A stretch of 64,000 nt of DNA. Source: an uncultured Dehalococcoidales bacterium. GTDB taxonomy: Bacteria > Chloroflexota > Dehalococcoidia > Dehalococcoidales > G020351185. This document shows positions 16,878 through 18,293 of this stretch, piece after piece. The notes below the pieces were generated by a model. The model worked only from the letters and a program-made list of their open reading frames with translations. It did no database searches and was not told the origin of the DNA. Each line of letters opens with the position of its first letter. The stretch's first letter is position 1. The translations under genes and the position numbers were made by a program. Location of the stretch: positions 22,474 through 86,473 of the forward strand of contig CAYGXW010000001.1 of NCBI GenBank assembly GCA_964354125.1. Reading direction: 5' to 3'.

Positions 16878-18293
16878 TTATTGGCGTTGTCTTCTACCGC
16901 GGCTGACTGTTTTGGTGCCCTTCCTTGTGCTCACGTCCCCCCTGTAATCAGGGACATTGATGTTGAAGGGTGTGCTCAGCTTGGGGTCAACAAAGCGGGA
17001 GCTGATGCGGCTCTCAATATCTTCCAGTGCACAGCGGGTGGTAATTACCGTCGGTAGCTGGGCATTATAGCGGTAGTTAATGACCTGATATAATTTTTCC
17101 TGTGCCCAGGGTGTGGTTGCCTGTTCGCCAAAATCATCCAGGACAAGTAACGGGGTGGTCTTTACACTTTCAAAGAGCTGGTCGTAGGATATCTTGCTGT
17201 CGGGGCTGAAGGTGGAGCGTAGATGGTCAAGAAACTCGGGCACTACTACGAACATTGCCGGCTTTCCGGCCTGGTAGCGGTAGTTGACAATAGCAGAAGC
17301 AAGGTGTGTCTTGCCGCAGCCGGTGACACCCTGGAAAACCAGCCAGCTTTCGGGTGATTTAGCATAGTCCAGAGCCAACCGGTAGACATTTTCCAGACTT
17401 TCCCTTTGTTCCGGCAGCAGATTTACCCGTCGCCAGTCAAAATTCTTAAAGCTCATTTGTTTCTGCAGTTCCAGCCCTGGTGCCCAACCATAATCCAGAC
17501 TGTAAGTCCGTTTCTCTTCCAGTGTAAAAATCTGGCACAGCTTGTTATCTGTTAACCGGCTACGAATTCTTTCGTCCAGTTGTTCAATGGGGGTGCTGGT
17601 GGCAATGACGGTAGGTAGTTCCTGGTTATAGCGGTGATTTAGTAGCTGGTCCAGCTTCTCCTTAGCCCAGGGGGTACTGCTCTGTGTGCCCAGGTCATCC
17701 AGAATTAGTAGCGGGGCATTGCGTAATTGGTCAAAGGACTGGTCGTAGGGCATTTCTCGGTCGGGGCTAAAGGTGGAGCGCAGGTCATCCAGAAGGTCGG
17801 GGGTCGTTTTGTATAGAGCCGGCTGTCCCTGATTGATACGCTCGTTGGCGATAGACGCCGCCAGGTGAGTCTTGCCACAGCCGCTGGGACCGACCAGAAC
17901 CAGCCAGCCCTTGGGCTCCTTGGCAAATGCCTTGGCTGCCTCATAGGCATTGCGGAATTGCTGCTGGTTCAAGGGATAGCCACTCCTGCCCTGTGGCACC
18001 AGATTGTCAAAGGTAAGGCGCTTTAGTGAACCCAGATTGCTGTAATGCTCTAGATGGCTACGGCGTTCCTTATCCTTTTCACTGAGGGTGCAGTGGCAGG
18101 CGATCACCCGGCTGAAGTCCGGCTTACCCGAGGGCAGGGTCGGGTGTACAAAACGGGCACCTTTGCAGATATGGCAGATTGAATCTGATGAGGATTCTTC
18201 GGCTCCTTCAGCGCCGCCTGACCATATGTCCGTATTTGCCTTTGATGTACTTGTCTGGGTCTTCTTTTTCAGTGTCTCGCCTATATGCTCCAT
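16878..18293 (-). CDS. zinc-finger protein with two tandem DnaC/IstB-like AAA+ helicase-loader modules
   Basis: N-terminal CHICKG...CHC. Module 1 has [11 protein letters not shown]...LLILDDLG...[26 protein letters not shown]. Module 2 has [11 protein letters not shown]...LLVLDDFG...[26 protein letters not shown]. Confidence 0.75.
   Translation of the reverse strand: [471 protein letters not shown]

Follow-up and report, generated by a model that had tools for sequence, protein, structure and literature searches.

To our knowledge, every DnaC/DnaI loader studied so far carries one ATPase module per chain. For DnaC, DnaI, lambda P and DciA alike, it is still contested how many subunits of the loader, how many docking contacts and how many active ATP sites it takes to open and release the DnaB ring. 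In E. coli DnaC, R216 and R220 constitute an Arg-coupler/Arg-finger pair with R-x3-R spacing, and the substitution N203A abolishes ATPase activity and impairs loading the most (PMC8213410). In B. subtilis, the DnaI subunits on DnaB are arranged in three non-equivalent dimers related by threefold symmetry (PMC3791466). Here, we analysed a gene in a 64-kb window (the whole stretch of DNA under analysis) from an uncultured Dehalococcoidales bacterium, which encodes two loader-type AAA+ modules in a single chain. Our search of the full-text literature, which covered few subscription journals, returned no account of a DnaC/DnaI loader with tandem modules; an earlier description is possible. The two-module arrangement is conserved and apparently undescribed.

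Domain architecture of the probable two-module loader

The sequence-only reading had described two AAA+ modules in tandem behind a zinc motif, and had named a self-alignment and an HMM scan as checks. Both analyses bear the description out, and every motif that it quoted was found at its stated residues on re-translation. The gene and its parts are as follows.

16878..18293, minus strand: two-module loader gene, a complete ORF of 471 aa plus stop, with an ATG start and without internal stop
18024..18185, minus strand: zinc knuckle and long helix (C40-x2-C43-x22-C66-x-C68; helix at residues 67–85), a putative helicase-binding domain
17520..18023, minus strand: AAA+ module 1, residues 91–258, delimited by self-alignment and by phmmer matches to E. 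coli DnaC (6qel_G, E 1.3e-14) and DnaI (4m4w)
17463..17519, minus strand: inter-module linker, residues 259–277, partly disordered (AF2 pLDDT <50 at residues 262–268)
16959..17462, minus strand: AAA+ module 2, residues 278–445, delimited by self-alignment and by phmmer matches to Aquifex DnaC (3ec2/3ecc); passes the IstB_IS21 cut-off alone
16878..16958, minus strand: C-terminal tail, with the sensor II motif PDYR (R451) of module 2, a basic tail and the stop codon

When residues 1–270 were compared with residues 271–471 by BLASTP, the stretches 91–258 and 278–445 aligned without gaps at 46% identity (E 3e-58). At the DNA level, the repeat is 67% identical across 322 nt. This similarity is far above chance, and its extent indicates that the module pair is the product of an old duplication. 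In the Pfam scan, IstB_IS21 and Bac_DnaA both match in two stretches of the loader, and NCBIfam models likewise match twice; module 2 by itself scores 51.5 bits against the IstB_IS21 cut-off of 24.1.

Searches of the PDB with phmmer returned DnaC (6qel/6qem), DnaI (4m4w/2w58) and Aquifex DnaC (3ec2). By Foldseek, one module superposes on 6qem_G with an rmsd of 2.9 Å over 186 columns. The full-length AF2 model has a pLDDT of 82.9 and a pTM of 0.51, such that the domains are well predicted and the mutual placement of the modules is of low confidence. The linker shows the lowest conservation inside the core, and the tail following module 2 has pLDDT <50. Neither module has a lid domain in the predicted secondary structure. 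The top Foldseek PDB ranks were taken by p97, Cdc48 and NVL; with rmsd values of 13–20 Å and a TM of about 0.3, these ranks reflect the presence of two modules in series, and we rejected the proteins as architectural matches.

The zinc knuckle and helix are modelled at a pLDDT of about 85–93. Residues C40, C43, C66 and C68 are each kept in 135–144 of 144 homologues, and the family consensus reads CPxCxGxG...CxC. The domain gave nothing significant in Pfam (E up to 10), in phmmer against the PDB (E up to 10) or in Foldseek with a separate AF2 model. Homology to the N-terminal domain of DnaI is thus without support from sequence or fold. Since the domain has no Pfam, PDB-sequence or PDB-fold match, its assignment as a putative helicase-binding domain rests on its position in the chain.

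Residues of the two ATP sites

Residue counts were taken from an alignment of 144 diverse homologues. The motifs of the two modules are listed below.

17868..17891, minus strand: Walker A of module 1, GPSGCGKT; K141 and T142 in 144/144
17688..17711, minus strand: Walker B of module 1, LLILDDLG; D199 and D200 in 144/144
17595..17597, minus strand: S233 at sensor I of module 1, which aligns with N203 of E. coli DnaC
17556..17570, minus strand: Arg-coupler/Arg-finger box of module 1, RIRSR; R242 and R246 each in 143/144
17307..17330, minus strand: Walker A of module 2, GVTGCGKT; K328 in 144/144
17127..17150, minus strand: Walker B of module 2, LLVLDDFG; D386 and D387 in 144/144
17034..17036, minus strand: R420 at sensor I of module 2; the family has A, S or R here, and Asn in just 14/144
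16995..17009, minus strand: Arg-coupler/Arg-finger box of module 2, RISSR; R433 in 143/144, R429 in 118/144

The earlier claim that each module has intact motifs stands for Walker A, Walker B and the arginine finger (143–144/144). It does not stand for the sensors: neither module has the sensor I Asn (S233 and R420 instead), and the sensor II Arg of module 1 is apparently lost in the clade of the query. Residue S233 lies at the end of a strand predicted by AF2 at residues 228–232. At this position, Asn occurs in 100/105 distant homologues, and Ile or Ser in the query's clade. For sensor II, module 2 has PDYR, with Y450 in 139/144 and R451 in 125/144. The corresponding motif of module 1 is 'APDFR' in the wider family and 'LEEKRTY' in the query; R262 is nearby and is not conserved in the clade. 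The spacing of RIRSR equals that of R216/R220 in E. coli DnaC, and the register of R242/R246 is a motif-based assignment, the ungapped HMMER alignment setting R246 against R216.

The sequence LRSTFSPD is found in both modules. The ssDNA-binding residues of DnaC, K143, F146, S177 and Y179, correspond to R172, F175, T207 and W209 in module 1 and to R359, F362, T394 and W396 in module 2. In both modules, these equivalents are invariant or show only F/Y and T/S exchanges among the 144 sequences. Purifying selection is similarly strong on the two modules, with dN/dS of 0.12 for module 1 and 0.11 for module 2.

Given that neither module has the sensor I Asn and that module 1 has apparently lost its sensor II Arg in the clade, the ATP sites probably differ from each other and may not both hydrolyse ATP. 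With sensor I non-canonical in both modules, and with ATPase activity abolished in DnaC N203A, hydrolysis may be weak or absent in this loader. If loss of the cis-site residues in module 1 followed loss of the trans-acting arginines in module 2, this would point to the intramolecular interface; such co-loss is suggestive in the 144-sequence alignment (20/41 vs 4/103), whose sequences are not phylogenetically independent, and is absent in a broader representative set.

Such inequality would also fit a protein in which one module is the loader ATPase and the other a degenerate regulatory pseudo-ATPase, for example one that is autoinhibitory or that binds DnaD or DnaA. The sensor I Asn is frequent in module 1 of distant homologues and rare in module 2, module 1 of the query's clade lacks the sensor I Asn and apparently the sensor II Arg, and in some distant lineages the canonical Walker A has been lost from module 1 or module 2. 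However, the P-loop Lys/Thr, the Walker B DD, the arginine finger and the ssDNA residues are present in both modules of the query and of the 144 homologues, selection constrains the modules equally, and a pure scaffold would have no use for an arginine finger or for contacts to ssDNA. We therefore regard a pseudo-ATPase as improbable and favour two ATP-binding modules with unequal sites.

Gene context, spread and module number

The neighbours of the loader were identified with Pfam and NCBIfam.

18921..20315, minus strand: dnaB replicative helicase gene, the presumed client (DnaB_C, E 1.7e-99, and a DnaB N-terminal domain)
18208..18924, minus strand: DnaD-domain gene, upstream (PF07261, E 6e-10; TIGR01446, 48.7 bits); its final 86 nt overlap the loader start
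16292..16798, minus strand: HNH endonuclease gene, downstream (PF01844 / PF14279)

The gene order is rplI, dnaB (DnaB and DnaB_C), the DnaD-domain gene, the loader and HNH, and the string of dnaB, DnaD-like, loader and HNH genes recognised from the letters alone is thereby confirmed. The position of rplI ahead of dnaB is the usual bacterial order. Across 80 loci, the loader is adjacent to a DnaD-domain gene in 79 and to dnaB in 76, with HNH downstream in 62, and the order rplI-dnaB-dnaD-loader is retained in 76–79. The dnaB-dnaD-loader trio also occurs in one Anaerolineae MAG. Within the 64-kb window, the loader is the only DnaC-like ORF. By this rplI-dnaB-dnaD-loader synteny, it is a resident chromosomal gene tied to the replicative helicase; a resident dna[CI] gene is listed for Chloroflexi by Brezellec et al. 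2016 (PMC5109545).

How widespread tandem loaders are, a survey suggested alongside the original description, can now be stated. At least 120 full-length homologues of the same length share 65–90% identity with the query, and relatives occur in at least 582 species-level genomes. The best 80 matches are all from Dehalococcoidia. Two full modules are present in 102 of the best 150 representatives of 50%-identity clusters, and the architecture is found in Anaerolineae too. In 81/96 proteins, the identity between orthologous modules exceeds that between a protein's own two modules, and these pairwise identities favour a single old duplication. Exceptions exist, such as the protein P0126, in which module 1 and module 2 share 88% identity. 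Module typing becomes ambiguous in distant homologues, where 59/102 second modules score higher on the module 1 HMM when the modules are scanned with separate HMMs.

The double module could in principle be an assembly or frameshift artefact, or the gene could come from a mobile element, as an IS21 IstB helper or a prophage loader. The best Pfam family name, IstB_IS21, points in the latter direction, and DnaC/DnaI loaders are thought to be phage-derived (PMC5109545). Against an artefact, the same uninterrupted two-module ORF recurs in hundreds of independent assemblies, closed MAG chromosomes included, which also settles the question of two genes split by a stop; moreover, at the protein and DNA identities given above, an assembler cannot collapse or expand the modules. 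Against a mobile origin, no IstA transposase or phage gene lies near the loader in the window, the core-gene synteny is conserved, and the NCBIfam IstB equivalog NF038214 is not reached (136.2 vs a cut-off of 200). None of the best 12 of 27 phage records (at least 80% query coverage) encodes a tandem loader; each of these 12 is a single gene of about 745 nt that is matched by both query modules. An artefact or mobile element is for practical purposes already refuted, and we give this reading next to no weight beside that of a resident chromosomal loader.

Orthologues in the rplI-dnaB-dnaD context have one module (locus L084), two (the window) or four (loci L081 and L082). Proteins with three modules also exist; these were found by protein sequence, outside the loci whose gene context was read. 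The modules are ordered as Zn-(module 1 type)n-(module 2 type). The three DnaI dimers of B. subtilis (PMC3791466) offer by analogy a precedent for paired loaders, which favours the idea, raised in the sequence-only reading, of a trimer of pseudo-dimers. The variation from one to four modules weakens a strict version of that idea with three chains fixed per hexamer, as orthologues with one or four modules, and three-module proteins, indicate that the modules in a chain do not follow any fixed divisor of six in their number. Linked modules may all the same change the number of loader chains that a helicase ring needs.

The same variation would be explained if six chains bound each DnaB hexamer, every DnaB subunit receiving one docking domain as with DnaC, and with the extra modules extending an open-ended spiral or filament on ssDNA, or building a second tier, so that module number tunes cooperativity and not stoichiometry. 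Four does not divide six, the one distinct module at the end of the chain could well serve to cap an array of variable length, and both modules have retained their ssDNA-binding residues. Against six chains is the dominance of the two-module form among the cluster representatives. We also know of no steric precedent in DnaC/DnaI complexes (6QEM, 4M4W) for twelve AAA+ modules around one hexamer. On balance, we consider the six-chain arrangement unlikely.

Proposed mechanism and comparison with known loaders

We think it likely that the query is a chromosomal resident DnaB loader of the DnaC/DnaI type, whose linked modules take neighbouring positions in the loader spiral and have unequal ATP sites. 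Under this model, the gene would be co-transcribed with rplI, dnaB and the DnaD-domain gene, and the old internal duplication has placed two AAA+ modules behind a single domain of zinc knuckle plus helix. Judging by domain order, the N-terminal domain would bind DnaB at its C-terminal tier, in the manner of the corresponding domains of DnaC and DnaI. Residue conservation indicates that both modules bind ATP. Each module carries the residues of an arginine finger, which would reach to a neighbouring module, and four ssDNA-contacting residues; from these, the linked modules may be placed next to each other in an ATP-dependent spiral that would hold DnaB open and grip ssDNA. In most of the family, module 1 has the full catalytic set and module 2 lacks the sensor I Asn; in the query clade, module 1 too has lost the sensor I Asn and, apparently, the sensor II Arg. 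Given that these substitutions are unequal between the modules, each chain likely has at least one 'assembly' site that hydrolyses ATP slowly or not at all, the other site being the switch that releases the loader. With one docking domain for every two modules, three chains might fill the six spiral positions on a DnaB hexamer.

More tentatively, concatenated loaders could have replaced the one-module loader in Chloroflexota, with a varying number of modules behind one docking domain. Fewer than six docking contacts (three, even two) would then suffice for loading, and the modules would form an alternating pair of 'glue site' and 'switch site'. If this is true, concatenated loaders would be nature's equivalent of the linked AAA+ rings made by engineering, and would directly reveal the number of loader-helicase contacts and of active ATP sites that loading requires.

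The family is natural and widespread, ties at least two loader ATPase modules behind one docking domain, and has visibly unequal ATP sites. It thus offers a ready system for the question of 6:3 versus 6:6 stoichiometry, for the division of labour between ATP sites and for the trimer-of-dimers symmetry of DnaI. The resident loader of a large and environmentally important phylum is annotated just as 'ATP-binding protein' or 'DnaC', and departs from the textbook one-module architecture.

Compared with E. coli DnaC (6QEL/6QEM), the query shares the initiator/loader-clade AAA+ fold without a lid, and has the Walker A and B motifs, the R-x3-R box and the four ssDNA positions in both modules. DnaC is meant for use with DnaB, and the query gene likewise lies beside dnaB. 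However, a DnaC chain contains a single AAA+ module and acts with DnaB at 6:6, whereas the query has two modules. The N-terminal domain of DnaC is helical and without a zinc site, unlike the zinc knuckle and helix of the query. At sensor I, Asn203 of DnaC is replaced by Ser and Arg; at sensor II, R237 of DnaC corresponds to R451 in the PDYR of module 2, and the module 1 motif reads 'LEEKRTY'. The NCBIfam DnaC equivalog NF005931 is not reached (129.5 vs a cut-off of 357).

With Bacillus DnaI (4M4W, 2W58, 2K7R), the query shares a zinc-binding N-terminal domain followed by AAA+ and a Walker B with 'DD'. A DnaD-domain protein is part of the system in which DnaI acts, and the gene immediately upstream of the query encodes one too. 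The query differs in having two AAA+ modules, and its CxxCxGxG...CxC domain matches the DnaI zinc domain in neither sequence nor fold. Since DnaI forms three dimers on DnaB, a covalent pair would hard-wire such an arrangement. The DnaI equivalog NF006505 is also not reached (127 vs a cut-off of 228). The best-scoring curated model is the NCBIfam subfamily PRK08116, which comprises single-module 'DnaC-like' proteins of about 269 aa with an N-terminal Cys motif. The query passes its cut-off (229.5 bits vs 189) with a whole-protein score that sums two stretches, the profile itself describing one module. Profile positions 11–235 correspond to query residues 32–249, which span the zinc motif and module 1.

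IstB, the IS21 helper (5BQ5, 8Q3W), has a paralogous AAA+ module, and the Pfam domain is named after it. The query has no IstA neighbour, its neighbours being dnaD and HNH, and it has an Arg-coupler, which IstB lacks (PMC8213410). Finally, the type II AAA+ proteins p97/Cdc48, NSF and ClpB also have two modules per polypeptide, often with unequal ATPase sites, as in the query. These are members of the classic clade with lid domains, and they form two stacked rings. Unlike in those rings, the modules of the query more likely lie side by side in one spiral.

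Sequence and predicted fold of the tandem loader

The DnaC/DnaI-type loader is encoded by one uninterrupted reading frame:

window 16878..18293, minus strand: two-module loader ORF, 471 aa, ATG start, no internal stop

The motifs quoted for it in the sequence-only reading were each re-translated from coordinates, and all are present. When residues 1–270 were compared with the remainder by BLASTP, residues 91–258 (module 1) aligned without gaps to residues 278–445 (module 2) at 46% identity (E 3e-58), bearing out the internal duplication claimed earlier; over 322 nt of DNA the two halves share 67% identity. 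The repeat is genuine and goes back to an old duplication. HMM scans likewise recovered two modules, with Pfam IstB_IS21, Bac_DnaA and AAA each matching two stretches of the protein, and module 2 taken alone passed the IstB_IS21 cut-off. The top curated model was NCBIfam PRK08116, a subfamily of single-module 'DnaC-like' proteins, which scored 229.5 bits where the cut-off is 189; its profile spans the Cys motif and module 1. None of the NCBIfam equivalog cut-offs for DnaC, DnaI or IstB was reached. The start codon is a predicted one, and roughly half of the homologues in databases are annotated some 20 aa shorter; the first residues (M-E-x-I...L-K) are kept across 80 loci.

Full-length AF2 modelling from an alignment of 144 two-module homologues (mean pLDDT 82.9) gave two well-formed α/β AAA+ cores without lid domains, and a disordered segment, 262–268, inside the linker at 259–277. 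Since the pTM was only 0.51, the model does not fix the mutual orientation of the modules. The best rigid fold match was E. coli DnaC (6qem_G; rmsd 2.9 Å over 186 columns); p97-type fold matches were rejected, being matches in sequence order only with an rmsd of 13–20 Å. Modelled alone, residues 35–96 (pLDDT 83) form a small β knuckle around four conserved cysteines and an 18-residue helix. The N-terminal family consensus is CPxCxGxG...CxC, which resembles the DnaJ-type zinc knuckle motif. Neither Pfam nor the sequences and folds of the PDB gave a match to this zinc/helix region; judged only by its position, the region may be the DnaB-docking domain.

Gene neighbourhood, distribution and module number

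The loader lies in a same-strand string of rplI, dnaB, a DnaD-domain gene, the loader and an HNH endonuclease gene, in line with the dnaB-to-HNH string described from sequence; the dnaB neighbour matches DnaB_C with an E value of 1.7e-99.

window 16292-16798, minus strand: HNH endonuclease gene, 168 aa, 3′ of the loader

The order rplI-dnaB-dnaD-loader is retained in 76–79 of 80 loci, 62 of which carry the HNH gene downstream, and one Anaerolineae MAG with a two-module loader has dnaB-dnaD-loader in the same order. At the Anaerolineae MAG locus L085, recA rather than HNH comes after the loader, and the dnaB beside it (L085:1695-4337, plus strand; 880 aa) carries an intein that includes a LAGLIDADG domain. 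At scores below the NCBIfam thresholds, the HNH region of the gene downstream of the loader in the window matches the HNH portions of IscB and Cas9d. The dnaD-domain and loader genes overlap in different frames (window 18208-18293, minus strand), and comparable overlaps occur in distant relatives (L081:5959-6113, L084:2849-2940), ranging from about 86 to 155 nt. A 671-aa homologue, P0025, joins PF07261 (DnaD/DnaB_2 domain) to a two-module loader, perhaps as a genuine fusion of DnaD with the loader or perhaps through a stop overlooked within an overlapping gene pair.

Among 5.8 billion proteins searched, at least 120 are full-length homologues, 445–475 aa long and 65–90% identical to the query, those with a named source being Chloroflexota or Dehalococcoidia. 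To survey how widespread tandem loaders are, we scanned one genome per species, and at least 582 stretches contained a relative. The top 80 all carry a Dehalococcoidia or other Chloroflexota label, and take in closed MAG chromosomes and a Dehalogenimonas MAG. At E ≤ 1e-30 there are 607 representatives of 50%-identity clusters, and 102 of the top 150 have two complete modules. A profile built from 20 distant two-module members extended the family to further two-module proteins named Anaerolineae. The full-length two-module homologues and closed chromosomes rule out an assembly artefact. A mobile element of IstB or phage type was also rejected, there being no adjacent transposase or phage gene and no match at the IstB equivalog level. 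No other DnaC-like ORF was found within the 64-kb window, and the top phage matches listed were single genes of about 745 nt, matched by both query modules, with no tandem phage loader. The wide distribution, kept gene order and lack of transposase or phage neighbours identify the loader as the resident chromosomal dna[CI] gene of Chloroflexi, which Brezellec et al. count as one domestication event (PMC5109545); 'duplicat' and 'tandem' are absent from the main text of that paper.

Within Chloroflexota the same gene slot holds one, two or four modules, and a further candidate variant is missing module 1:

L084:2849-3694, plus strand: one-module orthologue P0411, 281 aa (zinc motif and one module), in the order rplI-dnaB-dnaD-loader, Chloroflexota MAG GCA_027294635.1
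L081:5959-8538 and L082:1644-4181, plus strand: four-module P0288, 845 aa, after rplI-dnaB-dnaD, assembled identically from two different samples
L083:120-956, plus strand: P0160, 278 aa, zinc domain followed at once by an AAA+ of module 2 type; HNH and PSP1 lie downstream, matching the window

P0411, whose 90%-identity cluster has 27 members (the named ones Dehalococcoidia or Chloroflexota), either predates the duplication or has secondarily lost a module. P0288 consists of the zinc region, three module-1-type copies of 82–85% mutual identity and one module-2-type copy. In P0121, an independent four-module protein of 827 aa, the first three modules share 54–65% identity, a divergence that an assembly artefact would not produce. 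Three-module proteins (P0122 and P0289, about 792 aa) are known as protein sequences alone. The AAA+ of P0160 is 57% identical to query module 2 and lies on a single 2.8-kb contig; module 1 may truly have been deleted, or the contig may be chimeric. The general layout is Zn-(module 1 type)n-(module 2 type); the C-terminal module is single and distinct. Because orthologous modules are closer to each other than a protein's own pair in 81 of 96 two-module proteins, the sequences fit one old duplication followed by later amplifications.

Conserved and divergent ATP-site residues

In E. coli DnaC the relevant residues are Walker A K112, Walker B E170, sensor I N203, Arg-coupler R216, Arg-finger R220 and sensor II R237, with ssDNA contacted by K143, F146, S177 and Y179 (PMC8213410). 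We compared the equivalents across the 144 two-module proteins (41–90% identity to the query), setting the coupler/finger register by the common E-R-x3-R motif; in the ungapped HMMER alignment R246 is paired with R216 instead. The sequence-only reading held every motif to be intact, which stands for Walker A, Walker B and the Arg-finger but fails for sensor I in both modules and probably for sensor II in module 1. Neither module varies in its Walker A Lys/Thr or its Walker B Asp-Asp, and the Arg-finger (R246, R433) is kept in 143 of 144 proteins in each; the Arg-coupler is kept in 143 (R242) and 118 (R429). All four ssDNA-contact equivalents per module are invariant or show F/Y and T/S swaps only. 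Mean column conservation is 0.70 in either module, and pairwise dN/dS is 0.12 in module 1 and 0.11 in module 2, rough values with dS near saturation. Among 94 more divergent representatives, Walker A is present in 93 (module 1) and 94 (module 2), and the Arg-finger in 85 for each. Some distant two-module lineages have no canonical GxxGxGK[ST] in module 1, and others have none in module 2 (for example P0170, P0194, P0205, P0222, P0237 versus P0148, P0161, P0163, P0169); single-site degeneration seems to have happened repeatedly, on either side.

The sensor I residue of each module directly follows the predicted β4 strand. In module 1 it is Asn in 100 of 105 distant homologues of the wider family, and Ile or Ser in the query's clade (S233 in the query); in module 2 it is mostly Ala or Ser, Arg in the query's clade (R420) and Asn in only 14 of 144 overall. 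Sensor II of module 1 reads 'APDFR' in the wider family and 'LEEKRTY' in the query, its Arg unconserved among close relatives, while module 2 keeps 'P(D/S)YR' with R451. By these residues, modules 1 and 2 appear not to be equivalent. In E. coli DnaC, N203A abolishes ATPase activity and is the most loading-impaired mutant, and a sensor II mutant loses ATPase activity but retains loading (PMC8213410). Taken with the sensor changes, these phenotypes suggest that each module binds ATP and takes part in assembly, with hydrolysis unequal and probably slow.

A probable loader with linked modules

The protein is quite probably a chromosomal DnaC/DnaI-type loader of DnaB whose linked modules both bind ATP. 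As each module would donate an Arg-finger and contact ssDNA, the two are expected to take neighbouring places in the loader spiral; of the two classes of ATP site, one might serve mainly for assembly and the other as a release switch. With one docking domain per two modules, and with DnaI forming three non-equivalent dimers of threefold symmetry on DnaB (PMC3791466), a 6:3 stoichiometry is plausible by analogy, if rather doubtful: it is weakened by the one- and four-module orthologues and the three-module proteins. Its main rival is 6:6 docking, with surplus modules lengthening an open-ended array on ssDNA. These mechanistic consequences of the two-module design are inferential. The loader family itself is securely attested and widespread, a natural system in which to ask about loader stoichiometry and ATP-site asymmetry.

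Database copies number in the thousands and go by the name 'ATP-binding protein' or 'DNA replication protein DnaC', and we found no description of a tandem loader in a full-text literature that covers few subscription journals. The loader belongs to the superfamily of DnaC and DnaI and would work like them. Unlike the textbook members, it lacks the sensor I Asn and a recognisable DnaC- or DnaI-type N-terminal domain, and carries two modules per chain in place of one.
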